Source: a bacterium (lineage in GTDB: Bacteria; Hydrothermota; UBA3073; JACQXS01; JAQTXJ01). Taken from it: DNA of 64,000 nucleotides. The stretch covers positions 17,361 through 81,360 of the forward strand of contig JBAZNK010000015.1 in NCBI GenBank assembly GCA_041649255.1, read 5' to 3'. Positions 7,573-49,041 of the stretch are shown one piece after another. How positions within the stretch are numbered: position 1 is the stretch's first letter; every line of letters starts with the position of its first letter. A model generated the notes under the pieces. The model worked only from the letters and a program-made list of their open reading frames with translations, was not told the origin of the DNA and searched no databases. Made by a program: the position numbers and the translations under genes.

Positions 7573-7586
7573 CTTTCCTCCCAATA

Positions 7587-15863: not shown

Positions 15864-16052
15864 CCTACCTATTGGAGCAACCCCATTGAAGATAGACAAA
15901 AAGAAGCGACCTTAAAAGGTCGCGCTACGTCACACGAAAGCACAAAAAAAAGGAAGGGAGTCACGAAAAGACATCCAACAGAGAGATTCTTCGTCTTCGA
16001 CTCAGAATGACAATCTCAAAAGGTTTGTTAGACCACTTTAGACGAATTGGCA

Positions 16053-21617: not shown

Positions 21618-24600
21618 TTATTTTATTAATACTATTTTTTTTGTTTCATTATAAGTTCCGGCATTAAATTTAACAAAATATATCCCGGCAGGATAATCTT
21701 TGAATTCCAATTTTTCTTCATACCGACCGGGCAATTTTTCACACTCTATTAATGTTTTTACACATCGCCCGGAAAGGTCAAAGAGCTTTAATGAAACATT
21801 ACTCTTCAAAGGTATCTGGTAACTAATAATTGTTGACTTTATAAATGGATTTGAAGAGTTCTGATTAAAACTGAAAAGTTTTGTTAAAGTATCCGTTTCT
21901 TCAACTCCAACTACTACAATAGTAGAAAATACGGTTCTGTTCTTCAAATTATCGGAAGCCTGTAGTTCCAATGTATCCTCTCCTTCGCTCAAACTAAGCT
22001 GATATGAAATACTTCCACGAGTACAACTTCCGGTATCGTACTGAAAATAATCGGCAAGCTGTATATTTCTTGGCAGCAATTGACCATTTTTTATTCTTAA
22101 CGTAAGAGCAAGATTATATGGCACTATTTTATTAAATACATTAATTCCAGATTCATCTTCCAGTAAAGCTGAAAACATAAATTCAGCAGTATTTATAGTA
22201 TCTCCCATAGAAACACCATTTACAAAGAGTTGAATCGCAGGGCCTACCGTGTCTCCGGGGTTATCGCCACCGGGCATAATCGTAACCGGGGTAGCAGCAT
22301 TCCCGCAACTTGTATCATTCCAGGCAAATACACTAATTTTCCCATATGCTCCCCACAGTAATGAATCTTGAATCGAATCAAGTTTTGGAATATAGAAACT
22401 CTCTTTCCATTTTCCATTTGTTACTTCCGTTATGCCTTCAAATAAAATATCCTCACACAATTGATTATCTACCATCCTGCCGCGCATTTTATATTTAGTA
22501 TTTCCCTCAATTCCAGGATATCCATGATAAACATAGGTATAATTATATTCCGAACTCCTAACCGTAATATGTGCAAAATTTGCATTCGGTGCTGTGCCTT
22601 CTATCTCAAGCATAGTTCCACCCATAAGAGTATCAGAAAAAGAATCAATTTCTACATTAATTGACCATGAGGGGAATCTTGTTGCAGGGTCAGCAAATAA
22701 ATTTTCATTTACCTGGAGATTTCTGGATAAGTTCTGCCCATATACTACCTGGCCTAACGTATTTAATTTTTGTTTTAGTAATAGATTAACCAGTAAAGTA
22801 TCCATACCCGATGAACCACCTGTAGTCCTGGTAGCCGCAATAGAAGCAATGGTGCCTTTGTTGGGTATTTTCTGTAAATAATCAGCCATACAATCATCAT
22901 CCATACGGTCAAAACATCCTATTCCACAAGACCAGAATTGCCAAATTGGGTTTTTTACACCATTATTCAGGACTTCTATATCCTGTGGATTATAAAAAAG
23001 AATCTCGTGACAGAAAAGATAAAGATTACCATGCCCGGCCGCAAGCACCATATTCATACCTTTATCAATATGTCTTATGATATCGTTTTCTGCCGTAGGT
23101 TTACGATTACAAGTTTCTAACGGATAGTTCATAGAATAAACCTTAAACACGTCATATTCTTGTGGAATCATATTTGCACATCTTTCTTCATTTGCTACAA
23201 ACATATCTCTATCCGGATATTCATCGTCTGAAATCAATAGAATACGATTCTTCCATACCCCTTGGTCTGCTTTTTCATACTTAGTAATTTTATCTATTGC
23301 ATTCTCTGCTTCAATTTTAGTTTTTGCCGTAATCCTTCCAACTGCTAAGTTATGCTGTGAAAACCAATCATCCCAGCAATAATTACCTTGAGGGGGATAA
23401 CCATATTCACCAACCTTATATCCTTCTTCCCTCGCAGGAATACGATTTTTTGATACGTCTGACTTGTATGCATATGTCCCGGCACCAAGTAAAAGACAAT
23501 ATCCGGGTTGTCCCCAATTATCGTAAGCATACGATAGAAAGTTCTTTATCGCATACGGCGAATTTTCTATTCCCCAGCTAAAATTATTATATATATCCAC
23601 AGTAGAAAAAACTTCAGTGCTTAATCCCTGCCATTCTCTATAAGTTTTAAGCGTATTTGCATAATTTATAAAATCAGGATGAGCGATTATTATAAAATCC
23701 AGATTTTGTGACATATTCCTTATATTATACGGACTTTCTTCTTTTATAACCGGGATTTTAAAACTGTCACTTGCATAATAAACACCGCCGGGGCACTGAA
23801 AACTAACCACTCCCGTATCAAAATCAACATTGGCAACCCTTTTGGGGTCAAGAGGATTCGTAATATTAAAAATCACAGGAGACGATTGAAAACCTTTTAA
23901 TGTAAAGGCGAGAGAATCCTCTCCACTGAATTTTAAGTTTCCGGTATACGCTTCATATTTCTTTTTACAAACAACTTCAAAGTAATCAAAAAATATGACA
24001 TCTTTTGTCATTGAACTTCCTTTATATAACTCAATGGTAACAGTATCCGTTCCGTCGTGAAATCCGGAAGCATCAAATTCAAAAAACTTCGGAGGGTATT
24101 CCTGTGGGCCAATCCAACTTGTATTATAAAATTCAACTCCATTCAAATATAATTTTATGTTATGATTCATATCCGTCGCCTCAGGCTTATATTGACTCAT
24201 ATCAGTATACCAGCCATAAACGGCAAATTTTATCTTGCAGGAATCATTATAACAACTATGTGCATCAAACGTATAATCTTTTTTTAGACTTGAAACTGAT
24301 GAAATACGTTCAAGTTTATCCCATACCCAGGCAAGTCCACTTTTTGCCGGACAAATAGAATCTTTTTCTATATGCAAAGTATCAAAAAAGTACGCGGGCG
24401 CATTTTGAACTGAACTACCTGAAATGCTGTCTCTTCTCCCACTGCCTCCACCATATGTAAGCCAATAAACATTAGTAGATGCATATGGATTCAGGAAAGC
24501 TAAATCATTCTTTCCCCATCCGTCAAGTGATGTTCCATAAAATAAAATAGAATTATTCGGAAGGATATAAATAGGGACTTCTTTCAAGGTATCACTTGTT

Positions 24601-25553
24601 CCGATAACCATTTTACTTCCACCGTTATATAATCTTACAGTACTGAGGTCAACACCTGATAAATCAACCTGTGAAGTGTCAATTTTATATATGCCTTCTT
24701 CTTTAACTTCCACCTTATACCAATTATTAGTGTAAAAATGCAATTTTTTTGTTTCGCTTTCTTTTTTCCAGTTCTTTGCCTGTTCATAGTTAAGAAGCAC
24801 TGATTCAAATACTTTTTCAAAAAATCTATCCTGATGTGCTACACCTGCATCGCCACCATAAAAATTAACCTTTACCCGTAAACTCTTATAAAACAATAGA
24901 GTTTTGCTATTAGGATTATACCTAAATGGATTTATTCCGATTTTTACGATTTCCTGTCCTCTATAAAGCGCTTGCTCTTCTACGCTTGCAATCGCAGAAG
25001 GTAAAAACCCATCCTGTGAAGATGCTTTACCTTTTACGTTTCCCCCTGTAATTTCATATATTGGCGGGATATCTACTCCTGTAGATTCTACGGTTATAGC
25101 TTCAACTACCTCCACTCTAACAGTTGCGCCTATCGGGACTCCTATCGTAACATATTTTATGGGAAGAGTAGATTTTTCAGGTATTTGCTCCTGATAACTA
25201 CTTGGAGTATAGTGCGGAAGTTCCGATTTTATGATATTATCAGGAGTATACAAAAACTCTATACTTCTACTAGTTGAATTCAATACTGTTACGTCTTTTT
25301 TAAAATAATTTTCTGTTTTTGGAGAAGGCACATAAGCTTTCTTGTATTTTGCGGTTTTTATACTATTTAAGGATATCTTTTGAGACAATTTTGAAAGTGG
25401 TTTTACTTGTCCTATTGAAACTTTACGTTTTACGACTGAATTACTTTCCGTTTGAGCAGCTACATTTCTTGATAAACTTGTTTTACTCGCTCTAACTGAA
25501 TAAGTCGCAAAAAAAACAAAAAATACTAAAGAAAAAATATACCATTTTTTCAT
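21618..25553 (-). CDS. Peptidase C25 (gingipain-like) with T9SS C-terminal domain; PorU-type sortase is one possibility
   Basis: 1311 aa with a signal peptide. The C25 core is ..DFIIIAHPDF..YREWQGLSTEVFSTVDIYNNFS..YCLLLGAGTY.., with catalytic-type His (AAGHGN) and Cys (WSCGIGCF). The C-terminus ..NPFIKSTIISY..LFDLSGRCV..GIYFVKF..IVLIK is a T9SS CTD. Confidence 0.75.
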   Translation of the reverse strand: MKKWYIFSLVFFVFFATYSVRASKTSLSRNVAAQTESNSVVKRKVSIGQVKPLSKLSQKISLNSIKTAKYKKAYVPSPKTENYFKKDVTVLNSTSRSIEFLYTPDNIIKSELPHYTPSSYQEQIPEKSTLPIKYVTIGVPIGATVRVEVVEAITVESTGVDIPPIYEITGGNVKGKASSQDGFLPSAIASVEEQALYRGQEIVKIGINPFRYNPNSKTLLFYKSLRVKVNFYGGDAGVAHQDRFFEKVFESVLLNYEQAKNWKKESETKKLHFYTNNWYKVEVKEEGIYKIDTSQVDLSGVDLSTVRLYNGGSKMVIGTSDTLKEVPIYILPNNSILFYGTSLDGWGKNDLAFLNPYASTNVYWLTYGGGSGRRDSISGSSVQNAPAYFFDTLHIEKDSICPAKSGLAWVWDKLERISSVSSLKKDYTFDAHSCYNDSCKIKFAVYGWYTDMSQYKPEATDMNHNIKLYLNGVEFYNTSWIGPQEYPPKFFEFDASGFHDGTDTVTIELYKGSSMTKDVIFFDYFEVVCKKKYEAYTGNLKFSGEDSLAFTLKGFQSSPVIFNITNPLDPKRVANVDFDTGVVSFQCPGGVYYASDSFKIPVIKEESPYNIRNMSQNLDFIIIAHPDFINYANTLKTYREWQGLSTEVFSTVDIYNNFSWGIENSPYAIKNFLSYAYDNWGQPGYCLLLGAGTYAYKSDVSKNRIPAREEGYKVGEYGYPPQGNYCWDDWFSQHNLAVGRITAKTKIEAENAIDKITKYEKADQGVWKNRILLISDDEYPDRDMFVANEERCANMIPQEYDVFKVYSMNYPLETCNRKPTAENDIIRHIDKGMNMVLAAGHGNLYLFCHEILFYNPQDIEVLNNGVKNPIWQFWSCGIGCFDRMDDDCMADYLQKIPNKGTIASIAATRTTGGSSGMDTLLVNLLLKQKLNTLGQVVYGQNLSRNLQVNENLFADPATRFPSWSINVEIDSFSDTLMGGTMLEIEGTAPNANFAHITVRSSEYNYTYVYHGYPGIEGNTKYKMRGRMVDNQLCEDILFEGITEVTNGKWKESFYIPKLDSIQDSLLWGAYGKISVFAWNDTSCGNAATPVTIMPGGDNPGDTVGPAIQLFVNGVSMGDTINTAEFMFSALLEDESGINVFNKIVPYNLALTLRIKNGQLLPRNIQLADYFQYDTGSCTRGSISYQLSLSEGEDTLELQASDNLKNRTVFSTIVVVGVEETDTLTKLFSFNQNSSNPFIKSTIISYQIPLKSNVSLKLFDLSGRCVKTLIECEKLPGRYEEKLEFKDYPAGIYFVKFNAGTYNETKKIVLIK

Positions 25554-25750: not shown

Positions 25751-26671
25751 TTAACTACTGTTTTTTTCTATATATAGTTCTGCAGAGAATGCTGCTAATG
25801 CACCGTCTCCGGCTGCTGTTACGATTTGACGGAATCGTTTTTCCCTGACATCACCGGCAGCAAAAATACCGGGCACCGAAGTCTCGAGGTGTTCGTTTGT
25901 CATTATATATCTTTTGTTATCCAATTGTACAACATCCTTCAAAAAAGCGGTATTTGGAGTCAATCCTGCAAAAATAAATACACCTGTAACGTCTATGGTT
26001 TTTTCTACTCCATCACCTTCTATCGTGATGGACTCAACTCCTTTATCACCGTTTACACTTACAAGTTTATGTGAAAAATAAAATTTTGCGTTAGTATGTT
26101 TCTTTACTCTTTCTTGTAAAGTTTTATCTGCCGTAATAAAAGGCAAAAACTCAACAAACGTAATATGATTAACAAACTTAAGCAGGAATAATCCTTCCTG
26201 TATGCCTGAATTTCCGCATCCTATAACAGCTACATTTTTATTTTTATACAATGGACCATCACAGATAGCGCAATAGGATATTCCCTTACCGAAGAACTTT
26301 TCTTCCCCGGGAATATTTAATTTTTTATAATGAGTTCCTGTTGCAATTATTATTGCAGACGTTTCATATTCATTTTTTGATGTCTTTACAATTTTCACGT
26401 TATCTCGTATTTCGAGAGTTTCAACTTCTTCCGGGACTATATTCACGCCGATAGCTCTTGCTTGTTCTTCCATTTTCTGCATCAAATCAAAACCGCTTAT
26501 CTCTTTGAACCCGGGATAATTTTCTATTATATCGGTGTTTACTACAAGTCCACCCGTTACATATTTTTCAAGGATAACGGTATTTAATTTTGCTCTCTGA
26601 GCATAAATTCCCGCCGTAAGCCCGGCAGGTCCGGATCCAATTATAACTAAATCTTTTTTCTCCATAATCAT
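25751..26671 (-). CDS. trxB: Thioredoxin-disulfide reductase
   Basis: VIIGSGPAGLTAGIYAQRA (FAD-binding), the redox CAICDG motif, and GCGNSG (NADPH-binding). Its ATGA overlaps the stop of the upstream PBP gene. Confidence 0.9.
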   Translation of the reverse strand: MIMEKKDLVIIGSGPAGLTAGIYAQRAKLNTVILEKYVTGGLVVNTDIIENYPGFKEISGFDLMQKMEEQARAIGVNIVPEEVETLEIRDNVKIVKTSKNEYETSAIIIATGTHYKKLNIPGEEKFFGKGISYCAICDGPLYKNKNVAVIGCGNSGIQEGLFLLKFVNHITFVEFLPFITADKTLQERVKKHTNAKFYFSHKLVSVNGDKGVESITIEGDGVEKTIDVTGVFIFAGLTPNTAFLKDVVQLDNKRYIMTNEHLETSVPGIFAAGDVREKRFRQIVTAAGDGALAAFSAELYIEKNSS

Positions 26672-37827: not shown

Positions 37828-38868
37828 CTAAGAACTAACTACTTTATTAGTGAATCCAATAACAAAAAACACCACTATCCCGATTATCATAGCTATAATA
37901 CCATTACTTAACACGCCCGTTGCTGAACCCGCAATCATAAAATTATGCGCAACCGCAACTCCGGCAATCATCCCAAGAAAACTTATTCCGGAATCCGTAT
38001 TTCCATAACCTGCAAGAATTGTTTGTCTGAAAGGACATCCGCCTATCAACACCGACCCCCAACCCACAAGCAACATTCCCAAAAAACTTGCTATATAATT
38101 TGTATGAACTCCGGGAGATACGCCCGGTTTAAATTGCCCCAATAATAAATTCCCCAGAAGACAGAAAAGGAAAAACCCGAGAATTCCGCTAAACAAATGG
38201 AAATCCTTCATAAGAAAAATATCCCTGATTCCGCCGGCAAAACACAGCCTTGACCTCTGCGCAAAAATACCGACAAGTAATCCTGCAATAATAGAAATTA
38301 GAACCGGCGCATGCCCTTTAGAAGTTAAAACAATAAAAGAAGGTTTTACCAGAAGTAATATAAATAAACATAATGCAATAACCGGAATTATAAAACCATT
38401 TATTTTGCTAACTTCCTGCGCTTTTCCAAGAGTAAAGCCTCCCTTAAGAAATAGCGCTCCGATCCATATTCCAACGATAAATCCTAAAAGTCCTGCCAAA
38501 GCCGTCCAATCTCCGCCTGCCAATCTACCCAGCATTCTAATAGGACACCCGAGGAAAACAAGCGCTCCCATTGCTACGAAGAAACTAATCGTAAAACGAA
38601 TAATAGGAGAAGAACCTCCAATAACCTTGAATTCTTTAGTAAAAATCCCTATAATAAAAGCGCCTAAAATAAACCCTAATATCTCAGGACGAATGTACGA
38701 GAGTTTTTCCATATGATGTAATCCTAATGCGCCTGCAATGTCCCTGATAAAACAAATACCGCAAACACCCATATTAGGAGGATTTCCTAAACTTATAAGG
38801 AATGCAAACAATATTCCAAATAATCCCCCCGTAAGAAAAACTATCCACGAAATCTTAATTTTTCCCAT
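37828..38868 (-). CDS. yedE: YedE/YeeE-family membrane protein (putative selenium/sulfur compound transporter)
   Basis: 346 aa and polytopic. It has repeated conserved Cys loops (GVCGICFIRD, SRLCFAGGIRD, GGCPFRQ) characteristic of YedE-type proteins. It sits adjacent to a TusA-like gene. Confidence 0.8.
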   Translation of the reverse strand: MGKIKISWIVFLTGGLFGILFAFLISLGNPPNMGVCGICFIRDIAGALGLHHMEKLSYIRPEILGFILGAFIIGIFTKEFKVIGGSSPIIRFTISFFVAMGALVFLGCPIRMLGRLAGGDWTALAGLLGFIVGIWIGALFLKGGFTLGKAQEVSKINGFIIPVIALCLFILLLVKPSFIVLTSKGHAPVLISIIAGLLVGIFAQRSRLCFAGGIRDIFLMKDFHLFSGILGFFLFCLLGNLLLGQFKPGVSPGVHTNYIASFLGMLLVGWGSVLIGGCPFRQTILAGYGNTDSGISFLGMIAGVAVAHNFMIAGSATGVLSNGIIAMIIGIVVFFVIGFTNKVVSS

Positions 38869-38883
38869 TTTGCCCCCACTTCG

Positions 38884-39102
38884 TTATTTTAATTTCGTTA
38901 TCTTAATATTGTAAACTCCTTGAGTCTCGGTCAATTCAACCCCACATCCCGAATTTTTTGCAAACCGCGATACGTTTTCAGATGCAGGTTTATTATCAAC
39001 AATAACTTCTATAACTCCATCGGTCATTCCTTCTAATGCCTTTTTAGTTAAAATTACCGGCTGGGGACAATCTAATCCACACGCATCAATTTTGTTTGAC
39101 AT
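38884..39102 (-). CDS. TusA/SirA-like sulfur(selenium)transferase domain protein (YedF N-domain-like)
   Basis: 72 aa with a CGLDCPQPVILTKKAL CPxP active-site motif. Confidence 0.8.
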   Translation of the reverse strand: MSNKIDACGLDCPQPVILTKKALEGMTDGVIEVIVDNKPASENVSRFAKNSGCGVELTETQGVYNIKITKLK

Positions 39103-39426
39103 ATTATCCCCCTTACAATCAAAATATTTACATCTATTACCAATTTAAAATATACACTTATCTTTATCTAATATACAGATTTGTCAAATTGAAAGTTTAG
39201 ATATAACACCGGTGTGTAATATAAAAAATCAATGATTGGATGTGAGAGTTAGTCTCTTGTTTTGTATGAAATTACCGATTAAGAAGGTTGGCAAGAGTAG
39301 GATAGGCAAGTCCGCCTGAGGCGGATTATCCTTGCGCTTAAGCGAATGAACTTCCTTGTCTAAGGAAGAGGAGACGGGCGAACAGCCGTTCGCCCCTATA
39401 AAAAACGAAAGAAATTTATTTCAACA

Positions 39427-39450
39427 AGATAGAATGACGTCATTCTATCT
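39427..39450. repeat. 24-nt perfect palindrome centred on TGACGTCA, just 3' of a T9SS gene
   Basis: AGATAGAATGACGTCATTCTATCT lies 14 nt after the stop at 39465. It is related to the palindrome at 41554..41585. Confidence 0.6.
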
Positions 39451-39464
39451 ATCCTAACAATGAT

Positions 39465-40964
39465 TTATTTCAACAGGGTAAGTTTTTGGGTAGTTTTTGT
39501 CCCATTTGCATTCAGTATTAGAAAATACATTCCCGCTTTTAGTTCTTTTACGCGCAAAGTAATACTGTAACTCCCGGCTTTTTTCTCTTCGTTCACAAGT
39601 GTTTTCACGCAACTACCGGAAATGTCATAAAGAGTCAACGAAGCTTTACCCGTCATAGGTATTTTGTATTTGATAATTGTCGACTGTTTAAAAGGATTCT
39701 GTCCTATTTTTAATTCCAAAATCCGCACTCTAAAATCTAAATTTGCCTGTTCTTCTTCCCCTACCCATGTCCCAAAAGCATAAATGTATCCATCCTGTGA
39801 AGTAACAAAAACCATTCCATTAGAAATAGCAGGAGTAGACGTAATATATCCTCCTGTAGCATAACTCCATAAGACATTGCCTGTGCTTTTATCAAGACAA
39901 TACAAATCCTTTCCATTTACATATCCCGTTCCGACATAAATCTTTCCATTTCCGCTCAATGAAGCAGCTCCGACTCCGCAATGTCCTCCCAATGATGCAC
40001 TTGTCCAGCTTAACGCTCCGCTTGTTGCGTTTCTACAGTAAGTTTTCCCGATTTCGTGTCCATAATATATTTTATCCCCTTCAATAGATACGCAGGATGG
40101 GTCACCGCTATATCCCGGCGCTGAACGCTCTGACCATATAAGTTCTCCGCTCGAAGAAGCAGGAGACTCATTCATACAATACAACCACCCATCGTCCACC
40201 GAACCATATACTTTCCCGTCTCCTATACTCACAGATTGGTGTGTTGTATGACTTGCAGCAGTGTATTCCCACTGAAGGTCGGGTGTTGAGGAAAATTCTT
40301 TATACGCATAAAATGTCGTAGGCTGGTCTCCGGCAAAAATAGAAGCTCCTACTATTACAAGGCTGTCTTTAACTGCCGGGACTACCCCGTGTCCATACAT
40401 CAAATTAGGATTAGACGGAGTTATCTCCCATATAAACGCGCCTGTATTTGCGTTCAGACACCACATATAATTCTGGTACATAGCCCCAAAGAAAACTCTA
40501 TCGTCGGAAACAGTAGGTCCGGCTTCGATTTTACCTCCACTGTGATAAAACCAAATAGAATCTCCCGTATTTGCATCAAGACAATACATATCCCCGCCCC
40601 AGGTTCCAACATATACTTTTCCATTAACCACTGCAGGCGATGAAAATATTGTATCCTCTAATTGTTTAGTCCATATAGGAGCTCCACCATTATGGTCAAA
40701 ACAATATACACGACGATTAGTCGAACCAACGTAAACTTTTCCGTTTACTACCGCCGGTGATGACATATGAATATATTCCCAGCTGTTTCCTAAAGCAGTT
40801 CCTATCGGATAGCTCCATCCAAGTGTACCCGTTTCCGGACCGGCATCAGTTGTAAACGAAGTATGCGCCGGGTCGTGATACATCTGCGGCCAGTCTGAAG
40901 CAAGGACTAATGTTGCACTAATCTGTAAAAAGATTATTCCAAAACATACAACTACTTTTTTCAT
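39465..40964 (-). CDS. PQQ-like beta-propeller repeat protein with T9SS C-terminal domain
   Basis: Signal peptide, then repeated ..SSPAVVNGKVYVG(S/T)..(V/M)YC(F/L)D..G..(I/L)W.. blades. The C-terminus ..QNPFKQSTIIKY..LYDISGSCV..GMYFLIL..LTLLK is a T9SS CTD. Confidence 0.8.
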   Translation of the reverse strand: MKKVVVCFGIIFLQISATLVLASDWPQMYHDPAHTSFTTDAGPETGTLGWSYPIGTALGNSWEYIHMSSPAVVNGKVYVGSTNRRVYCFDHNGGAPIWTKQLEDTIFSSPAVVNGKVYVGTWGGDMYCLDANTGDSIWFYHSGGKIEAGPTVSDDRVFFGAMYQNYMWCLNANTGAFIWEITPSNPNLMYGHGVVPAVKDSLVIVGASIFAGDQPTTFYAYKEFSSTPDLQWEYTAASHTTHQSVSIGDGKVYGSVDDGWLYCMNESPASSSGELIWSERSAPGYSGDPSCVSIEGDKIYYGHEIGKTYCRNATSGALSWTSASLGGHCGVGAASLSGNGKIYVGTGYVNGKDLYCLDKSTGNVLWSYATGGYITSTPAISNGMVFVTSQDGYIYAFGTWVGEEEQANLDFRVRILELKIGQNPFKQSTIIKYKIPMTGKASLTLYDISGSCVKTLVNEEKKAGSYSITLRVKELKAGMYFLILNANGTKTTQKLTLLK

Positions 40965-40977
40965 ATCCTCCTCCTAT

Positions 40978-41445
40978 TTATTTTTCGTTTGCTATTTTAT
41001 ACATTTTCTCTAAAAGACTAAGCAACTTCTTTGCATCTTTCACCGGCAGTTGTGTAGCAGGCGAATTCCCGTATATCCTATTCCAGGAAGGTAATTTTTT
41101 CAGTATTCCCTTTCCTTTGTCTGTAAGTCGAACCCTTACGATTCTTCTGATTTTGGGGTCCACTTTCCTCTTGACCAATCCTTTTTTTACCATACCTTCA
41201 ACAATTCCGGTAAGATTACTTTTTGTGCAAGAAAGATGCTCTTTCAATTTATAGAACGGAACATTATCTTCTTTTTGCAAGAGTCTGAGTATTTTATTCT
41301 GGGGAGGCGTAAGGTTATGTTTCGCTGTTTTCTCTTCCCATCTTTTATATATGAGTTTTTCGAGCCACATTATAAGGGAATCTATTCTTAATGCTTCATC
41401 ATTGGGAAGTAACTCCGTTTTAGATACACGATGTTTTTTCTTCAT
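40978..41445 (-). CDS. MarR-family winged-helix transcriptional regulator
   Basis: 155 aa. ..LTPPQNKILRLL..LKEHLSCTKSNLTGIVEGMVKKGLVKRKVDPKIRRIVRVRLTDKG.. is a typical MarR wHTH. There are 13 nt to the next gene. Confidence 0.75.
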   Translation of the reverse strand: MKKKHRVSKTELLPNDEALRIDSLIMWLEKLIYKRWEEKTAKHNLTPPQNKILRLLQKEDNVPFYKLKEHLSCTKSNLTGIVEGMVKKGLVKRKVDPKIRRIVRVRLTDKGKGILKKLPSWNRIYGNSPATQLPVKDAKKLLSLLEKMYKIANEK

Positions 41446-41553
41446 AATCTGATATAATCTAAAAATAGTTAAGTACTAAACTGTTTAATAATTAACTAAC
41501 TATAACTATGTAACTTTATTGATTATTTGTCAAGGGGTTTTTATAAATATGTG

Positions 41554-41585
41554 GGGTAGATAGGATGACGTCATCCTATCTACCC
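41554..41585. repeat. 32-nt perfect palindrome centred on TGACGTCA, just 3' of a T9SS gene
   Basis: GGGTAGATAGGATGACGTCATCCTATCTACCC lies 10 nt after the stop at 41596. Confidence 0.6.
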
Positions 41586-41595
41586 TAACAATGAT

Positions 41596-43317
41596 TTATT
41601 TCAGCAGGGTAAGTTTTTGTGTAAAGCTTCTATTGCCGCAGATAAGTTTAGCGAAGTATATACCCGGGGGTAGATTTTTTGCATCCAGATTAAAATTATA
41701 ACTCCCGGCTTGTTTTTCTTCGTTTATGAATGTTTTTACAAGCCTCCCTCCTATGTCGTAAATCTTCAACGAGGTTTTAGTCTTGGCAGGCAGTTGATAT
41801 GAAATTGTCGCATAAGAAACAAAAGGATTGGGAGTGATTTTCATATTTGTTTTATATTCGTTAGGGATTTCCGAAACAGCCGGCACATCCACGAAAAAAG
41901 TAATGGTTGTCGTATCATTGCTTAAATTATTGTCCCCCGGATATGTTGTTACGGCTGTTAAAGTAAGAGTATCCGGCGTTTGAGATAAACACTTTTTCGT
42001 AAAGATAATATTTTTTGTTTCCGTGAAGTTGAGGTCAGTAAAAGCGCTATCTTCGTAACATCCCGTAATTTTTATCTTTACCCCGTTAAGAGGTTTAAGT
42101 CCGAAGTTTGATACTTCCAGTATGATATCCAAACTATCCCCGATATTGTATTTAACCTGATTCTGCGGACTTACGAATTTAATTATTCCCGCATCGGTAT
42201 CGGGAAGTGTTTCAAAAATATTATTAAGTCCCATTTTTGCGAGGTAACTGCTCACCCAGCACATATCTTCCGTATCCGGATCCTGTGTGGTAGAAGTTAT
42301 TCCCCCGTCAAAGTCAGTATCATAAGACAAAAGGACATCCGTAAGAAATTTATGTTTATTTTTATATTTTGTATCCCTTGATATTTCATACATTGCGTAA
42401 TGTGCGTTGCAGTATGCGACATTCCACGCATTATCCCAGTTATACCCGTCTCCGCAATCACGCCATACCTGAAAAGTATCAACATAACTTCCATTAGTAT
42501 CAATCCATGCTTTTCCGCGTATCGTATCCTCCCGAAAAGTTGAATTACATATTCCCCAAACTATAGTTCCGCTTGACATAGCCCATGTTTCTTCCGACAA
42601 GCGCAGTTGTGTGCTCAGTGTTATCCAGTACATAAGTCTTTCGCCGTATGTTGCTGCGCTATCCATCCAATTATTATTATTTCTTAGTGCCCCATATTGA
42701 TAAAGGTTCCCGGCTGCCCATCCCGTTACGAATGAGTTAATGTATTTATATGAAGGGTGATAAATATTCAGCGGATGACTCATAATATAATCAGCGCAGG
42801 AATCAGCAAATCCATAATACGAGGAATCTCCATAGGTTTCAGAATAAACTTCCGCAGCAGTGAGCGCCCACGCAGAGTTGTGAACACGGTAATAATCGTA
42901 CTCCACGGCGCCTTCTTCTTCCCACGGCGGGTACCTATCACAATAGATTTTTGCATTTCTGATATTAGTACTGAATTTCGCAGTATCTCCCGTAAGTTGT
43001 CCGTATCTTGCCCAGACCCAGATAGCTTCGAGCGTATTATCCGTCTGTATAATGTTTGCGAGTGCTCCTGCTTCAGCTTCAATCATCCCGCCGAAATTGG
43101 TATCTGCAGGATTTGTGACCTGCCATTTCGTAAGAAAGTCTGCAGTTCGAGCAAATTCTGCAGGATAACTGTGTCTCTTGGAAAGAAGAAGTGTATCTAA
43201 CGTTTTATTGATTTTTCTACTTGTGTAGTATCCCGGATAATCAATCGGAATAGTTGCGTATACAGGAGTACATAAGATTATTTCTAATAAGAAAAAAAAC
43301 GGCAGTTTTATCTTCAC
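41596..43317 (-). CDS. Secreted hypothetical protein with Ig-like (CARDB-type) module and T9SS C-terminal domain
   Basis: 573 aa with a signal peptide. The Trp/Tyr-rich N-domain is of unknown family. The C-terminus ..PNPFVSYATISY..IYDIGGRLV..GIYFAKL..LTLLK is a T9SS CTD. Its start overlaps the YHS gene stop by 4 nt. Confidence 0.65.
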   Translation of the reverse strand: MKIKLPFFFLLEIILCTPVYATIPIDYPGYYTSRKINKTLDTLLLSKRHSYPAEFARTADFLTKWQVTNPADTNFGGMIEAEAGALANIIQTDNTLEAIWVWARYGQLTGDTAKFSTNIRNAKIYCDRYPPWEEEGAVEYDYYRVHNSAWALTAAEVYSETYGDSSYYGFADSCADYIMSHPLNIYHPSYKYINSFVTGWAAGNLYQYGALRNNNNWMDSAATYGERLMYWITLSTQLRLSEETWAMSSGTIVWGICNSTFREDTIRGKAWIDTNGSYVDTFQVWRDCGDGYNWDNAWNVAYCNAHYAMYEISRDTKYKNKHKFLTDVLLSYDTDFDGGITSTTQDPDTEDMCWVSSYLAKMGLNNIFETLPDTDAGIIKFVSPQNQVKYNIGDSLDIILEVSNFGLKPLNGVKIKITGCYEDSAFTDLNFTETKNIIFTKKCLSQTPDTLTLTAVTTYPGDNNLSNDTTTITFFVDVPAVSEIPNEYKTNMKITPNPFVSYATISYQLPAKTKTSLKIYDIGGRLVKTFINEEKQAGSYNFNLDAKNLPPGIYFAKLICGNRSFTQKLTLLK

Positions 43318-43631
43318 CGCTCTCTATTCTCCACTTTTCTCTTTTCCCTACTATAAATATATTTCACTGGATGTTTTAAAAACTCAGTTTCACATTTCTG
43401 TGAACAAAAATAATAATTTTTATCAACATATTTTAACTTTAGAGAGTGCGACTTATATACTTCCGTTCCACATACAGGGTCCATATCCCTTATTGATGTA
43501 TCCTCTTCTTCTTGTTTTTGGGGCGGCGACTTTTCTTCTTTTTCTTTTTTATTCAAATTAAGATAAGCACATCCCGCTAACATGCAAATAGTCCCACATA
43601 AAAACAAACTCAATGCTATTTTTTTCAACAT
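43314..43631 (-). CDS. YHS-domain lipoprotein (putative metal-binding)
   Basis: Lipobox MLAGC, then DPVCGTEV..KYVDKNYYFCSQKCETEFLKHP, which matches the YHS/TRASH-type Cys motif. Confidence 0.7.
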   Translation of the reverse strand: MLKKIALSLFLCGTICMLAGCAYLNLNKKEKEEKSPPQKQEEEDTSIRDMDPVCGTEVYKSHSLKLKYVDKNYYFCSQKCETEFLKHPVKYIYSREKRKVENRER

Positions 43632-43695
43632 TGTTCTTCTTCCCCAAAACCCCTTAAGTTAGGGGCGAAGCTATTAGCCCCGCCCCTATTTATTC

Positions 43696-44706
43696 CTATT
43701 TCAAAGACATTATTTTACTAACATTTTTGTGACTTCCGGTATTTACTACACAGAAATATATACCGTTTCCTATTTTATTACCCAATTCATTTTCCCCGTT
43801 CCAGTATGCAGTATACGAGCCTGCATCCTGTTCGCCATTCACAATTTGTTTCACCAATTTACCGGTTACGTCATAAATACCTACACTGACTTTTTCTTTG
43901 TTTTCAATTGAATAAAAAACATTGGTATTTGAAGTAAACGGATTCGGCGATACCTTTACGCTAAATGTATTCTTGTCAGAGTTTTCTTCCACAGCTACAT
44001 TCATAACGGAGGTTTTTGCACCTTGACACACTTGTACACCTTTTCCCGAAGTCTTCTGGTACCAAACAACTATATTACAGTTGCTGACATTCCAGCCCGA
44101 ACTTATTGTAAAATTCTGTGATACGTCAGTAGAAGCCCCTACCGATAGATTCTTGGTAGTACCGCCATAAGGTATTATAACTCTTGCTACGTCGTAATAC
44201 GTAGACCCCGAATACGAAATGTTAGTCTCGGTAATCAGTACGTGAACAACTCCCGTTAGAGAAGTCCCCGATACGTTCACAATGTGAGCCTTAACCGTAC
44301 CGGTCTTTGCTCCTGAATTATAAAAAGTCCCTGCTAAACTTATCGTTACTTTCGGTATAGTGTCTTTACGCATATCAAAATAACCTCTACTATTAGCATA
44401 ACTTGGACTCGCCTGGAAAGCCCACCCATCGTATATTACCGTTGGAGTTCCCTGGATGCCATAATAATTATATGCCCTGTTATAAAAATCGCTCACATAA
44501 AAAGGATCGCTGGAACTACAATGATAAGCCACTACTATTAATGTATCTTTTGCTTCCTGTGATAATTGATGCAGCCCCGCTGCAGTCGTTGGGCAGTATG
44601 TTCAGTTAGTTGCAGTGAACTCCTCAAATACCATAACTCTTTGCACTGCCAAGACCGAACTTGCCAAAACCGCCAACATACAAAAAATCCCTAAACCTTT
44701 ACGCAT
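43696..44706 (-). CDS. Candidate selenoprotein: secreted thioredoxin-fold (UxxC) protein with T9SS C-terminal domain, paralog 1
   Basis: The hand translation extends the track ORF (43696..44532) upstream in frame: AGGAGGAAAT-ATG(44706) MRKGLGIFCMLAVLASSVLAVQRVMVFEEFTATN-TGA(44604..44602)-TYCPTTAAGLHQL..VVAYH... It has a signal peptide, a UxxC motif, a hairpin 17 nt after the TGA, and the C-terminal CTD ..SPNPFTSNTNVFY..IYDVTGKLV..GIYFCVV.. Confidence 0.7.
44570..44584 (-). promoter_or_regulatory. SECIS-like hairpin of paralog 1
   Basis: The mRNA reads UGA + 17 nt + UGCAGC GGG GCUGCA (6-bp stem, G-rich loop). The sequence and spacing are conserved in paralog 2. Confidence 0.5.
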
Positions 44707-44834
44707 ATTTCCTCCTATATTTTTTTAACACAACATCTTCCTATAAAATATAACAACACCTCTCAGCAACAATTGTTACTCCCTCCTTAAAATAACAATA
44801 TTTTAATTAACCGTCACTGTCCAAAATTTTGTAC

Positions 44835-45836
44835 TTATTTGATTGATAATATTTTACTAACATTTTTGTGACTTCCGGCATTTACTACACAGAAATATAT
44901 ACCGGTTCCCATCTTATTCCCCAATTCATTTTTCCCGTTCCAGTATGCAGTATAAGAGCCTGCATCCTGTTCTTCATTCACAAGTTGTTTCACCAATTTA
45001 CCGGTTACGTCATAAATACCTACACTGACTTTTTCTTTGTTTTCGATTGAATAAAAAACATTGGTATTTGAAGTAAACGGATTCGGTGATACCTTCACGG
45101 CAAATGTATTCTTGTTTGAGTTTTCTTCCGCAGCTATACTCGTAACAGGTATTTTAGCTCCCTGGTATATTTCTCCGGTTGAAGTATTCTGGACAAAAGC
45201 AACTATACTGCAATTAGATGGATTCCAACCTCCGCCCGAACTGATTACGAAGTATTTTGTCGAATCAAGAGAGGCACCTGCGGCTAAGGATACCGGGCTT
45301 CCGGCTGCGCGAAGCAGGTCTCTTGCTACGTCATAATAACCAGAAAGATTTGTTTCGGTGATTGCAATGTAAAGTAATCCGCTTATTGAAACACCGGAAA
45401 CGTTTGTGATATGCGCAGTAACGTACCCGTTTCTTGCCGACGAGTTATAGTAAGAATTAGAAAGGTCTATCGTTAATTGGGGTGCAACGACCTTTCGGGT
45501 ATTAAAATCGGTTCTAAAAGTACTGTATGTCGTACCGGTTCTTCCTATTATACCGTCACACACCGTAGTAGGGGTGCCTGACACACCATAATCATTTGCC
45601 CTTTTAGCATGTTCGGTTGTATAAAAAGTTTGACCCGATACGGGAAAATATGAAACAACAGCTAAAGAATCCCCTACTTCTCCTGCTAATTGATGCAGCG
45701 CCGCTGCAGTCGCTGGGCAGGACGGTCAAGCCGTACTGGTAAATTCTTCTACTATAACTACTCTTTTCACTGCCGATGCCTGACTTATCAAAGTCATCAT
45801 TATGCAGGCAATTCCTAAAAAGACGTTCTTACGCAT
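44835..45836 (-). CDS. Candidate selenoprotein: secreted thioredoxin-fold (UxxC) protein with T9SS C-terminal domain, paralog 2
   Basis: The hand translation extends the track ORF (44835..45584) upstream in frame: AGGAGGAAGT-ATG(45836) MRKNVFLGIACIMMTLISQASAVKRVVIVEEFTSTA-TGA(45728..45726)-PSCPATAAALHQL..VVSYF... It has the same architecture as paralog 1. There are 16 nt between the selD stop and this start. Confidence 0.7.
45694..45708 (-). promoter_or_regulatory. SECIS-like hairpin of paralog 2
   Basis: The mRNA reads UGA + 17 nt + UGCAGC GGC GCUGCA, followed by the same UCAAUUA as in paralog 1. Confidence 0.5.
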
Positions 45837-45852
45837 ACTTCCTCCTACCTGA

Positions 45853-46911
45853 CTAACAAAAGTCAGGATTTATTACTATTTTCCCTTTCGGTTTATTTAT
45901 CACTTCGCCAATAATAGTCACATCTTTTATCCCGGCTTTTCTCATTTTCTTAACCATATTATCAACTTTATTCTTAGAAACACATATCAACAATCCACCT
46001 GAAGTCTGGGGGTCAAACAAAACATCTTTTTTCCAGTCGGGGATTTTATCAGACATTTCCACAAATTTTATTCTAAATTCTTTATTGCGATAAGCTCCCC
46101 CCGGAACCATTCCCATTTTCGCAAATTCTTCAACTCCGTTAAAAATAGGAATTTTATTGATATCCAGTTTTACACCAACCTTTTTCTCTCCGGCAATCAT
46201 CTCGCAAATATGCCCGATAAGACCAAATCCCGTTATATCAGTGCAGGCGTTCACACCCGTTTCCTGCGCAATTTCAGAAGCAATCTTGTTCAAAGTAGTC
46301 ATTGACTTAATTATTTCATTTATACTTTCATTAGACGCCAAATTAGCTTTAATTGCCGTGCTGATTATTCCTGTACCTAATGGTTTCGTAAGCACTATAC
46401 CATCCCCTGTTTTCGCGCCCGTATTTCTGATTACTTTACCGGGATGAATCGTTCCTGTAACGGAAAGTCCGTATTTTAATTCCGAATCTTCAACACTATG
46501 TCCACCAACAAGCGTCACTTCAGCTTCTTTAAGTTTTGCCAACCCACCTTCCAATATCTTTTTAAGAACGGATATGTCCAATTTACTCACAGGGAATCCA
46601 ACAATATTCATTGCCACAATAGGTTTTCCACCCATAGCATAAACATCGGAAAGAGCATTAGCCGCAGCAATTTGTCCAAACAGATATGGGTCATCAACGA
46701 TAGGAGTAAAAAAGTCTATTGTCTGCACGATAGCAATATCGTCAGTTAACTTATAAACACCGGCATCTTCTGCGTTTTCAAAACCGGCAATAAGATTTTT
46801 ATTTTTTTTCTGAATCAACCCGCACAATGCCTTATCCAGTACACCTGGACCTAATTTAGCCGCTCAGCCACCGCCTTTGCTGTACTGTGTTAATTTAAAG
46901 TCATCGTTCAT
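45853..46911 (-). CDS. selD: Selenide, water dikinase (selenophosphate synthetase), Sec-containing form
   Basis: The track ORF (45853..46827, TTG start) lacks the N-terminus. Upstream in frame: ATG(46911) MNDDFKLTQYSKGGG-TGA(46866..46864)-AAKLGPGVLDKAL-CGLIQ... This aligns with the E. coli SelD N-terminus [22 protein letters not shown], with U at the catalytic Cys17 position. The rest (..IVQTIDFFTPIVDDPYLFGQIAAANALSDVYAMGGKP..) is typical SelD. Confidence 0.9.
46835..46849 (-). promoter_or_regulatory. SECIS-like hairpin of selD
   Basis: The mRNA reads UGA + 14 nt + UCCAG GUGUA CUGGA (5-6 bp stem, GU-containing apical loop). Confidence 0.45.
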
Positions 46912-46920
46912 TACACTCCC

Positions 46921-47979
46921 TTATTGTGGCTTTTTCATTGCATCATAAAAAGCCTGCCAGAACGGGTCCACTCTTGGATGTTCCAATTCCCTATCTTTAC
47001 CATTTTCTCTCAATATTATTTTTTCTTTAGCATTTGTTAATTCCCCGACAATTGCCGATTTAATACCTTCTTTTGATAACACATCGACTACTTCCTGAGC
47101 TTTATGGGGTCTGCATGAGATAATCAAAGTACCTTCACTTATAGATTTATACGGGTCAATCTTGAAATAATCGCATATTTCTTTCACGTTATTTTCCATC
47201 GGAATAAGTTCTTTTTCTACTCTTATTCCAAATCCGCTTGCCTGTGCAAGTTCATATAATCCGCCCCAGATTCCACATTCCGTAGCGTCGTGCATTGAAC
47301 TTATTCCTTCATCCCTGACTCCAACTTTTACCGCAGCCATTGCTTCTTTTATTACCGACATTTTATAAAACAATTCCTGTGACTGTTTAGAAAAATCACT
47401 TCCAAATTCCTTTTCAAGCAATTTAGGAAACATAGCTGCAAATATTCCGCAAGCTTCTATTGCAGGGCCTTTTGTAATAATTATTTTGTCTTTCTCTTTT
47501 GCCATTCTGGGGGTTACGTATTTATCTTTATCGCCTATTGCCAAAACCGTAGCTCCTCCGACCATCGGATAATTGCAATTCTCATACCTCGCAGTATGCC
47601 CGCAAATTACGCTTACTCCAAATTTTTTACATTCTTGATGAATGGTCTCCCACATTATTTGTATTTCTTCTTCGTTGATTTCCATAGGTAAATTGAGGTC
47701 TATCGCCATATAAACGGGAGGCAATCCGCTTGTTACCACATCGGAAATGAGTATATGAGTAGCAAACCATGCCGCTCTTTCCCAGCCATAAGCAGGAACT
47801 ATAAATACAGGGTCAGTAGTTATCGCCACAGCTTGTGTCCCGATTTCTACGATTCCAACGTCTACTCCATGTTGCGGACCTACGAGTATATTTTTATTGC
47901 CGGCGCCTAAACGCGGAAATATAAGTTCATTGAAAACCTCAGGAGATATTTTGCCTATATCAGGAAGCCTTGATTTCAT
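46921..47979 (-). CDS. AIR-synthase-related protein (PurM/HypE/SelD superfamily)
   Basis: 352 aa. ..VGPQHGVDVGIVEIG..VAITTDPVF.. and the later ..SMHDATECGIWGGLYELA.. are PurM-fold N and C domain hallmarks. There are 9 nt to the selD start. Confidence 0.7.
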   Translation of the reverse strand: MKSRLPDIGKISPEVFNELIFPRLGAGNKNILVGPQHGVDVGIVEIGTQAVAITTDPVFIVPAYGWERAAWFATHILISDVVTSGLPPVYMAIDLNLPMEINEEEIQIMWETIHQECKKFGVSVICGHTARYENCNYPMVGGATVLAIGDKDKYVTPRMAKEKDKIIITKGPAIEACGIFAAMFPKLLEKEFGSDFSKQSQELFYKMSVIKEAMAAVKVGVRDEGISSMHDATECGIWGGLYELAQASGFGIRVEKELIPMENNVKEICDYFKIDPYKSISEGTLIISCRPHKAQEVVDVLSKEGIKSAIVGELTNAKEKIILRENGKDRELEHPRVDPFWQAFYDAMKKPQ

Positions 47980-48049
47980 TTTTCCCCTATCCTATATAAA
48001 TTTTAATAATATTATCATATGGTATTATATTCCTTCAATATATAAAATT

Positions 48050-48055
48050 TGTCAA
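48050..48055 (-). promoter_or_regulatory. Candidate -35 box for the AIR-synthase-like/selD operon
   Basis: The minus strand reads TTGACA at 48055..48050, with an A/T-rich -10 candidate (GAATAT/AATATA) 17-18 nt downstream. It is divergent from the LysR promoter. Confidence 0.3.
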
Positions 48056-48100
48056 TCTGAATTTTTAAATATTTTACTGAAATGTGCAATGATATAAATC

Positions 48101-48129
48101 TTGACATACATAACAATACGGATTAATTA
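48101..48129 (+). promoter_or_regulatory. Candidate promoter of the LysR regulator gene
   Basis: TTGACA (48101..48106), 17 nt, TAATTA (48124..48129), with the ATG at 48157. Confidence 0.4.
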
Positions 48130-48156
48130 TTCAATATTGGCTAAATTAGAAACAAA

Positions 48157-49041
48157 ATGATAGATTTACAGCAGTTAAAAACCTTTTGCACGGTGGTTGA
48201 AAAAAAGAGTTTTACAAAAGCGCAGGAAATAGTCCATCGCACGCAATCCACAATAAGTTCTCAAATATCGGCATTAGAAAGATTTTACAACACGCCCTTG
48301 TTTGACCGTTCATCAAGAGAAATAAGAGTCACAGATAACGGAAAAATATTATACGAATACGCCAAAAAAATTATTGAACTTGCAGAGAAATCTAAAAATG
48401 CAATATATTCATCGAAACAGACACTACAAGGCGAATTACTTATCGGCGCCAGCACAATACCGGGAACTTACATATTACCCGAAATTTTAAGTATTTTTAA
48501 GAAAAAATATTCTGAAGTTGATATCTCTATGCAAATTACCAACAGCAAAGATATAATTACTAAAATAATTGAACATACATTGGAAATAGGGATAGTAGGA
48601 GAAAAATTAAACGATAATCGTCTTGAATACATAAATATAGCAAAAGACAGAATTGTTCTTGTTGTCCCGAAAAATCATAAATGGGTAAAAGCATCAAAAA
48701 TTAAACTAAAAGACATTCAAAAAGAATCTTTTCTTTCAAGGGAAGAAGGGTCCGGCACCAGAACGGCATTGGAATCAATTCTAAAAACAAAAGGCATAAA
48801 TAAATTAAACACTTCCATAAACTTAGGGAGCACCGAAGCAATAAAAGAAGGCGTAAAAGCAGGTTTGGGACCGGCTTTTGTATCAGAATGGGCAATCAGG
48901 GATAAGTCACTAAAAACAATTGCCGTTGAAAACCTTGATATCGTGCGTCACTTTTATATTGTATTCCTGAGAAACAGCGTAAAAAACAATATAATCGAAA
49001 CTTTCATACAGTTTATTAAAAAAGATTATTTCCTCTCCTGA
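48157..49041 (+). CDS. LysR-family transcriptional regulator, divergent from the selD operon
   Basis: 294 aa with an N-terminal wHTH (LKTFCTVVEKKSFTKAQEIVHRTQSTISSQISALE) and a LysR substrate-binding domain. It ends at a TGA stop. Confidence 0.85.
   Translation: MIDLQQLKTFCTVVEKKSFTKAQEIVHRTQSTISSQISALERFYNTPLFDRSSREIRVTDNGKILYEYAKKIIELAEKSKNAIYSSKQTLQGELLIGASTIPGTYILPEILSIFKKKYSEVDISMQITNSKDIITKIIEHTLEIGIVGEKLNDNRLEYINIAKDRIVLVVPKNHKWVKASKIKLKDIQKESFLSREEGSGTRTALESILKTKGINKLNTSINLGSTEAIKEGVKAGLGPAFVSEWAIRDKSLKTIAVENLDIVRHFYIVFLRNSVKNNIIETFIQFIKKDYFLS

Follow-up and report, generated by a model that had tools for sequence, protein, structure and literature searches.

A selenium-utilisation locus encoding predicted type IX-sorted selenoproteins behind selD

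The subject of this analysis is a 64-kb stretch of bacterial DNA (contig JBAZNK010000015.1 of assembly GCA_041649255.1, positions 17,361 to 81,360), referred to below in its entirety as the window, which carries a selenium-utilisation locus around the selenophosphate synthetase gene selD. On balance, we consider it probable that this locus is made up of about four separately promoted units and that its core codes for exported selenoproteins whose genes lie behind selD. Two such proteins, designated Ux1 and Ux2, are encoded there, each with a selenocysteine (U) in a U-x-x-C motif and a C-terminal sorting domain of the type IX secretion system (T9SS). The gene map, family assignments and intergenic distances, which had been proposed earlier in a sequence-only reading of this DNA, were reproduced at every coordinate with an open reading frame (ORF) listing and frame translations (Table 1).

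The coding sequences of selD, Ux2 and Ux1 contain in-frame TGA codons at 46864-46866 (motif GGGUAAK), 45726-45728 (context TSTAUPSCP) and 44602-44604 (context TATNUTYCP), respectively; the internal stops of the three genes are all TGA, and their terminal stops are TAG or TAA. A six-frame scan of the 64 kb yielded only these three plausible TGA read-throughs, and TGA ends 6 of the 43 long ORFs in the window, that of the LysR gene included. TGA is therefore an ordinary stop elsewhere in the window, which is what is expected of the standard code with local recoding, and an alternative genetic code or pseudogenes were rejected on these two counts. Homologs of the Ux proteins were collected by a family-profile scan of GTDB species genomes and metagenomes. 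TGA occupies the same active-site column in 15 homologs from independent assemblies, Bacteroidota and some metagenomic homologs have cysteine there, and this column (C15) is invariably U or C. Public gene calls truncate these ORFs (for example P0001-P0005, and the calls of 36 aa plus 215 aa), which speaks for reading the codon as a pseudogene stop, a sequencing error or a reassignment in place of selenocysteine; such an explanation is extremely improbable in view of the recurrence of the codon across assemblies, the cysteines aligned with it, the intact signal peptides upstream, the rarity of read-through candidates and the conserved hairpin downstream.

These downstream structures, which resemble selenocysteine insertion sequence (SECIS) elements, were identified by folding each sequence separately and were compared with the same position in the cysteine forms. 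All 15 selenocysteine forms have a hairpin of 5-8 bp whose apical loop contains GG and has its centre at +26.5 to +28.5 relative to the UGA. The stems comprise at least five different sequences in which the pairing is kept (for example CUGCAGC/GCUGCAG, CAGCAAG/CUUGCUG, CGGCAAG/CUUGCCG and GUACAGCC/GGCUGUAC), and the mean ΔG of the 32-nt window after the UGA is -10.2 kcal/mol in the selenocysteine forms (n = 15) versus -4.4 kcal/mol in the cysteine forms (n = 5). In an ungapped RNAalifold alignment of the 15 SECIS regions no shared hairpin emerged, as the stems differ in register by 1-3 nt from clade to clade.

Ux1 and Ux2 share the same architecture, consisting of a signal peptide, the motif EEFT-x3-U-x-x-C-P and a conserved cis-proline (G-T-P-T), followed by an Omp28-like region and a C-terminal sorting domain of T9SS type A. 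By inspection, the signal peptides are of the Sec type (MRKNVFLGIACIMMTLISQASA/VK and MRKGLGIFCMLAVLASSVLA/VQ). The sorting domain is recognised by TIGR04183 (37.1 bits for Ux1 and 36.7 for Ux2; cutoff 23) and by PF18962 (30.0 and 33.5; cutoff 27), and the Pfam model Omp28 (PF11551, gathering threshold 34.9) matches Ux2 with 43.4 bits and Ux1 with 34.3, just under the threshold. The profile of the Ux family matches the structure of the thioredoxin MJ0307 (1fo5) with an E-value of 2.8e-4, with the CPxCP motif and the cis-Pro loop in register, such that the UPSC and UTYC motifs of the Ux proteins align with CPHC of MJ0307. A cysteine homolog, P0155 (CPPC), which aligns end to end with Ux2 at 29% identity (E 1e-32), yielded an AlphaFold2 model with a pLDDT (predicted local distance difference test) of 83.8, and the best PDB match of this model is the T9SS thioredoxin HBP35 (5y1a; E 1.6e-10, template modelling score 0.52-0.54). 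At the sequence level, a profile search gave no match between the Ux family and HBP35 at E ≤ 1. With a predicted thioredoxin fold and a T9SS sorting domain, Ux1 and Ux2 are credible exported selenoproteins, as the sequence-only reading had supposed. Elsewhere in the window there are a PorU-like T9SS sortase (21618-25553; 399.6 bits against a cutoff of 420), a T9SS-tailed M1 aminopeptidase (16053-18065) and a thioredoxin reductase (25751-26671; 352.9 bits against a cutoff of 343).

HBP35 of Porphyromonas gingivalis has thioredoxin activity in vitro and occurs in a modified form at the cell surface (PMC2907840), and it has been linked to hemin binding (PMC2907840, PMC3120885). The order of parts in the Ux proteins is that of HBP35 (signal peptide, thioredoxin domain with a motif of the dithiol type, β-sandwich and T9SS C-terminal domain); unlike them, HBP35 has a CxxC motif where they have UxxC, and it is not encoded beside selenium genes. 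The best NCBIfam match of both Ux proteins is NF045500, "Omp28-related selenoprotein", over model positions 29-276 of 377, with scores of 40.6 (Ux1) and 55.8 bits (Ux2) that do not pass the cutoff of 200; the homologs from WOR-3 and the sister group score 52-83 bits, also under it. Since all of them fall short of the cutoff, the Ux proteins form a branch of their own within a predicted selenoprotein superfamily and are not members of the curated family. A 2026 selenoproteome review equates NF045500 with "hypothetical protein GOS_C", and the Ux proteins resemble GOS_C/NF045500 in having a thioredoxin-like UxxC N-terminus followed by an Omp28-like domain (PMC9312934, PMC13188914). They differ from it in their T9SS tail and their linkage to selD, neither of which is described for GOS_C in the literature searched. 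With the predicted DsbA-like, DsbG-like, thiol:disulfide interchange and Prx-like selenoproteins (PMC9312934) they have in common a thioredoxin-fold UxxC domain and a predicted extracytoplasmic location; unlike those periplasmic-type families, they carry Omp28-like and T9SS domains, which implies a surface or extracellular location. The two paralogs are themselves unevenly related, in that the last 300 nt of the genes, encoding the T9SS domain (43689-43988 and 44828-45127), are 92% identical and the N-terminal domains share 48% of their residues. The orthologous pair in the relative GCA_028716385.1 (locus L001) has the same 3' pattern (88%), which suggests gene conversion limited to the sorting domain.

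The selenium-handling core of the locus stands as it was first read: SelD, YedE and the LysR regulator all pass curated cutoffs, and a YedF-like TusA domain accompanies them. SelD passes the equivalog model TIGR00476 (399.5 bits; cutoff 125) and has selenocysteine followed by lysine (UxxK) in its N-terminal glycine-rich motif, SKGGGUAAKLG; its ortholog in a close relative (L003) also has U. YedE covers positions 2-337 of the 337 of TIGR04112 (402.8 bits; cutoff 200). The regulator scores 289.2 bits with NF040786, LysR_Sec_metab (cutoff 250), and its ortholog takes the same divergent position in L003 and L004. YedF as modelled by TIGR03527 consists of a TusA-like N-terminal and a DsrE-like C-terminal domain. 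The TusA-like protein of the window (77 bits with PF01206) matches only positions 1-67 of the 194 of this model, with 68.4 bits, under the cutoff of 110, and the ortholog of its gene in L003 encodes a full YedF of 199 aa (232.8 bits). Neither selA nor selB nor a tRNA-Sec gene was found within the 64-kb window. The association of selD with yedE, yedF and LysR_Se is a known prokaryotic selenium-utilisation neighbourhood (Lin et al. 2015, PMC5322559). The present locus conforms to it in that SelD, YedE and LysR_Se pass the curated models, LysR is adjacent to and divergent from the selD unit, and YedE is preceded by a TusA domain of the YedF type; it departs from it in that YedF is cut down to its N-terminal domain, selA and selB are not nearby, a PurM-superfamily gene stands before selD and two genes for exported selenoproteins stand after it.

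The association of Ux genes with selD recurs in distant relatives. Selenocysteine forms with 35-40% identity lie directly upstream of a selenocysteine-containing selD (CAGUASK) in metagenome-assembled genomes (MAGs) of WOR-3 (loci L011, L012, L014, L015, L016, L017 and L021) and in a metagenome contig of WOR-3 type (L028). Among the evaluable loci, flanked by about 3 kb or more on each side, selD is next to 10 of the 15 selenocysteine forms and to none of the 5 cysteine forms, whose hosts may simply be without selD. The connection of UxxC proteins with selD that had been proposed from the window alone is thus borne out by neighbourhood comparison, both in WOR-3 and in a close relative in which a different paralog holds the slot behind selD. 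In the complete WOR-3 chromosome CP070664.1 (L011) the order is Rrf2, UxA(U), UxB(U), a T9SS protein, an Omp28-like cysteine lipoprotein, selD, an HgdD-like gene, an activase gene, selA and selB. The lipoprotein gene immediately upstream of selD (12577-13335) encodes a cysteine form. The genes between selD and selA (15042-17061) encode a 2-hydroxyglutaryl-CoA dehydratase D-component and its activase, and the same dehydratase/activase association was noted in Slackia by Lin et al. 2015 (PMC5322559).

The close relatives (L003/L009, which belong to GCA_028716385.1, and L007) have about 88% DNA identity to the window. In GCA_028716385.1 the slot behind selD is held by a third paralog, Ux3, which is about 50% identical and has kept the 16-nt spacing. 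DNA identity between the window (45588-46913) and L009 (8868-10183) is 82%; it spans selD and collapses some 250 nt inside the downstream Ux gene. A different paralog has therefore come to fill the slot, with the junction within the gene.

The foremost alternative to a functional coupling is that these genes have been inherited together as a "selenium island", in which the Ux proteins merely need selenocysteine and share neither regulation nor a pathway with their neighbours. The clustering of Ux genes, selD, selA and selB in the L011 chromosome would fit such an island, as would the exchange of paralogs at the selD slot, with identity collapsing inside the gene, and the occurrence of other T9SS selenoproteins of the same lineage that are unlinked to selD. 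Yet the adjacency has been kept in at least three clades despite differing gene order and paralog turnover, the 16-nt spacing between selD and the Ux gene is found in two species with different paralogs, and no strong terminator separates selD from Ux2; on these grounds we regard mere co-inheritance as rather unlikely. Several observations weigh against the coupling that we favour. Five selenocysteine-form loci with adequate flanks are without selD (L001, L010, L027, L029 and L030), and the positive cases fall in only about three clades and are for this reason not independent of one another. The order is reversed between groups, selD standing first in the window and Ux first in WOR-3. The Ux1 and Ux2 orthologs of GCA_028716385.1 are on another contig, unlinked to selD. 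The structural evidence comes from the cysteine proxy P0155, at 29% identity, and not from Ux2 itself. Finally, a weak hairpin (-10.4 kcal/mol, z -2.3) overlaps the selD stop, which leaves some doubt over read-through into Ux2.

The orthologs of Ux1 and Ux2 in GCA_028716385.1 sit among other T9SS selenoproteins and T9SS peptidases, and the source lineage seems, judging from such sequences, to have an expanded repertoire of T9SS-sorted selenoproteins. In L001 (contig JAQUPX010000001.1 of GCA_028716385.1), two further T9SS-tailed ORFs (6739-7587 and 7646-8506) have an in-frame TGA in "DPM-U-PNC" and "SVS-U-PEC"; they have no family match beyond the sorting domain, form an array with Ux1/Ux2 orthologs and T9SS peptidases of families C25 and M14, and may represent an undescribed family of UxxC selenoproteins. 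In L002 (Logan SRR29366204), three tandem Prx/ResA-like ORFs with "G-U-GPC" or "D-U-SGC" motifs and T9SS tails (58-804, 1044-1799 and 3084-3848) flank an Ux2 ortholog, and gene callers split each of them into an ORF of 60 aa and one of about 180 aa.

All genes from 47979 down to 37828 are on the same strand, and they had been read as one tightly packed operon. The packing holds for AIRS-selD-Ux2 (gaps of 9 and 16 nt), YHS-573aa (a 4-nt overlap), MarR-PQQ (13 nt) and TusA-YedE (15 nt). It does not hold for the gaps of 64 nt (Ux1-YHS), 150 nt (573-aa gene-MarR) and 362 nt (PQQ-TusA-like), which contain strong hairpins and/or promoter-like boxes; Ux2 and Ux1 are separated by 128 nt, where the folding scan found no notable hairpin. 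The hairpin following Ux1 is the probable 3' end of an AIRS-selD-Ux2-Ux1 unit. The palindrome following the 573-aa gene forms, with the box beyond it, a terminator-promoter cassette that is repeated in the relatives, and several hairpins (z -3.5) follow the propeller gene. The box TTGACAAAT has four exact matches in the window, three of them at this locus, where each lies between genes, on the coding strand, ahead of the AIRS-like, MarR and TusA-like genes; all three are conserved in the relatives. Hairpins after Ux1, the 573-aa gene and the PQQ gene, together with separate boxes before the AIRS-like, MarR and TusA-like genes, are at odds with a single operon, and the most economical reading of these signals is that of about four units, [AIRS-selD-Ux2-Ux1], [YHS-573aa], [MarR-PQQ] and [TusA-YedE].

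When compared for a shared LysR operator, the promoters on the selD and yedF sides have in common only the TTGACAAAT box with an A/T-rich upstream stretch. A palindrome centred on ACACCGGTGT is present at 39207-39222, immediately ahead of the -35-like box that serves TusA-YedE, and is only partly conserved in the relatives (ATATACCAGTGTTAT in L009 and ATATCCCAACATTAT in L007). It is a candidate operator that occurs only upstream of the TusA-like gene, without a counterpart in the LysR-AIRS intergenic region. Rfam gave no match at the locus at either the gathering or a permissive threshold, hence no known riboswitch is present in the 362-nt spacer.

The close relatives also bear on the genes that lie between the two selenium units. 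The order in L003/L009 is LysR (divergent), AIRS, selD(U), Ux3(U), YHS, 573aa, MarR, PQQ, TonB_C, Mop, YedF (199 aa), a 124-aa gene, C-GCAxxG-C-C and YedE; in L007 it is Ux2, Ux1, YHS, 573aa, TonB_C, Mop, YedF-N and YedE, without MarR-PQQ. The stretch from the 573-aa gene to yedF therefore varies: TonB_C and Mop have been lost from the window and MarR-PQQ from L007. Both pairs are flanked by copies of an intergenic cassette that probably mediated these indels. Each copy comprises the final codons of a T9SS gene (..TLLK) together with a perfect palindrome around ATGACGTCAT, and most copies also have the TTGACAAAT box. The YHS gene was found in the close relatives only. The 573-aa protein has no sequence match in PDB, and its single-sequence AlphaFold model has a pLDDT of 37, with only the T9SS domain folded. 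The YHS and 573-aa genes are specific to the genus, and the flanks of the WOR-3 loci contain no counterpart of the YHS, 573-aa, MarR, propeller, YedE, LysR or AIRS-like genes.

These data speak to the proposal that the whole block from 47979 down to 37828 is a self-contained module for selenium import, selenium activation and an extracytoplasmic selenoprotein function, which would count the YHS, 573-aa and propeller proteins among its partners or clients. The common strand of all genes and the synteny of the entire block in L003/L009 agree with it, the similarity of the three TTGACAAAT boxes extends beyond the boxes themselves and would in principle permit common control, selenoproteins with YHS and C-GCAxxG-C-C domains exist in other organisms (PMC9312934), and a C-GCAxxG-C-C gene lies beside yedE in L003. 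Synteny with such close relatives, however, says little, because they are diverged by only about 12% in DNA; strong hairpins part the units, MarR-PQQ and TonB_C-Mop have been deleted in one genome or another, the YHS, 573-aa and propeller genes do not adjoin Ux-selD in WOR-3, and selA, selB and selC are absent from the window. Nor do these three genes contain a selenocysteine codon, so that they are not clients of selenophosphate: of the exported clients that the sequence-only reading had named, Ux1 and Ux2 stand and these do not. The notion of a self-contained module is weakened by the same indels, terminators, missing selenocysteine codons and missing selA, selB and tRNA-Sec genes, and also by the location of the Ux1/Ux2 orthologs of GCA_028716385.1, far from selD; we consider it quite improbable. 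The YHS-573aa and MarR-propeller units are lineage-specific, loosely attached neighbours, and nothing ties them to selenium.

Under the reading of about four units with a selenoprotein-encoding core, LysR_Se would control the first of them, comprising the AIRS-like gene, selD, Ux2 and Ux1 (the last three with selenocysteine) and closing at the strong hairpin. From this unit would be made SelD, itself a selenoprotein, and two selenocysteine-dependent thioredoxin-fold proteins, which would cross the inner membrane through the Sec translocon by virtue of their Sec-type signal peptides and would then be routed to the cell surface by the T9SS C-terminal sorting domain. In an architecture like that of HBP35, the U-x-x-C motif would form the redox centre of the thioredoxin fold, with selenocysteine in place of the attacking cysteine, and the proteins would serve as surface selenol/thiol-disulfide oxidoreductases, a role that HBP35 may also have. 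Their position behind selD would couple surface oxidoreductases that require selenocysteine to the supply of selenophosphate and to control by LysR_Se. The TusA/YedF-N-like protein and YedE, a known putative pair for selenium import and handling, would be expressed from a promoter of their own. What the analysis demonstrates is the gene content, the selenocysteine codons, the SECIS-like hairpins, the fold, the sorting signal and the repeated placement of selenocysteine forms beside selD. The co-transcription of the Ux genes with selD, the surface location of their products, their oxidoreductase activity and their substrate are what we infer from sequence in this scheme.

A more far-reaching and distinctly doubtful version would make the Ux proteins the outward arm of selenium acquisition, in which a selenocysteine thioredoxin, displayed at the cell surface by the T9SS, captures or reduces selenium species from outside or S/Se-bridged compounds and feeds the YedE/YedF-like importer and SelD under LysR_Se, in a lineage with a T9SS-dependent surface selenoproteome. 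This would explain why the selenocysteine forms stay beside selD across WOR-3 and its relatives. Such a surface selenoproteome, if it exists, would include the Ux paralogs, the Prx-like proteins and the "U-P-x-C" T9SS proteins of L001 and L002.

Selenoproteins are usually regarded as redox enzymes of the cytoplasm or periplasm. The locus points to selenocysteine oxidoreductases that are sent to the cell surface by the T9SS and whose genes are repeatedly coupled to that of selenophosphate synthetase in WOR-3 and its relatives, a candidate phylum of which little is known. Loci with selD, yedE, yedF and LysR_Se are already known, as are thioredoxin-fold UxxC selenoproteins, and GOS_C is listed as an uncharacterised prediction. 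T9SS-sorted selenoproteins were not found in selenoproteome reviews or in full-text literature searches, nor did the same literature contain an HBP35-like architecture for the Ux family or its conserved adjacency to selD in WOR-3 and relatives; the sole trace is the name that NCBI gives to the family of a distant sister group. Should the finding be confirmed, the Ux proteins would add a new cellular compartment to the prokaryotic selenoproteome and would provide a fold, a location and a genomic partner for GOS_C, a predicted family to which no function has been assigned. It would also mean that such proteins are systematically missed in MAG annotation, as standard gene callers split their genes.

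Table 1. Coordinates of genes and signals at the selenium-utilisation locus (window positions unless a relative is named)
Feature	Position	Strand	Remarks
YedE	37828-38868	minus	YedE-family putative selenium transporter
TusA-like, 72 aa	38884-39102	minus	TusA fold, equivalent to YedF N-terminal domain
PQQ-TusA spacer	39103-39464		palindrome 39427-39454 and further terminator-like hairpins; stands where relatives carry TonB_C, Mop
Conserved 115-nt segment	39137-39251		84-85% conserved; upstream of Mop-YedF in relatives
TTGACAAAT box ahead of TusA-like gene	39179-39187		
BamB/PQQ-like β-propeller with T9SS C-terminal domain	39465-40964	minus	PQQ_2 126 bits, Por_Secre_tail
MarR-family regulator	40978-41445	minus	PF01047; first gene of separate accessory unit
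Perfect palindrome, terminator-like, after 573-aa gene	41554-41585		-27.3 kcal/mol, z -7.2; followed by TTGACAAAT box 41525-41533
573-aa T9SS cargo	41596-43317	minus	Por_Secre_tail the sole recognised domain; translationally coupled to YHS through the 4-nt overlap
YHS-domain lipoprotein	43314-43631	minus	lipobox LAGC; PF04945 42.9 bits
GC-rich hairpin after Ux1	43660-43688	minus	-25.5 kcal/mol, z -4.2; 0/200 shuffles as stable
Ux1, UTYC	43696-44706	minus	Ux2 paralog, same architecture
Ux1 SECIS-like hairpin	44570-44584	minus	+21 to +35 from UGA; GGG loop
Ux2, UPSC	44835-45836	minus	signal peptide, thioredoxin fold, Omp28-like β-sandwich, T9SS domain
Ux2 SECIS-like hairpin	45694-45708	minus	+21 to +35 from UGA; GGC loop
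selD, selenophosphate synthetase	45853-46911	minus	selenocysteine at codon 16; TIGR00476
AIRS-like, PurM-superfamily "AIR synthase family"	46921-47979	minus	Pfam AIRS and AIRS_C
LysR/AIRS divergent intergenic region	47980-48156		177 nt; holds promoter-like TTGACAAAT box
TTGACAAAT box ahead of AIRS-like gene	48047-48055	minus	box and flanks conserved in L009
LysR, selenium-associated subfamily (LysR_Se)	48157-49041	plus	NF040786; divergent from AIRS-selD unit
Cassette copies, window	39427-39492, 41558-41623		
Cassette copies, L009	13300-13390, 15432-15523		
Cassette copy, L007	4308-4361		

The AIRS-like gene that opens the selD unit belongs to a family with about 70% identity across phyla, and its position ahead of selD is specific to the source genus. 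In five other contexts (L005, L006, L032, L033 and L034) its homologs never adjoin selD; their neighbours are genes for cysteine desulfurase, NifU (NifU_N), NIL, ThiF, MOSC, FdhD, TusA, DsrE (DsrE_2), Rrf2 and MnmA-like proteins. HypE, ThiL and a second SelD were considered as identities and rejected, because the protein is under the hypE, thiL and selD cutoffs (96.8 bits against 251.6 for HypE, TIGR02124) and lacks a C-terminal cysteine, ending in ...FYDAMKKPQ. From its sequence and these contexts it looks like an uncharacterised ATP-dependent enzyme of sulfur/selenium trafficking.

With regard to RNA genes, no 23S rRNA match was reported within the 64-kb window; a 5S rRNA gene stands alone at 11002-11116, with a tRNA-Cys gene 180 nt away on the other strand.

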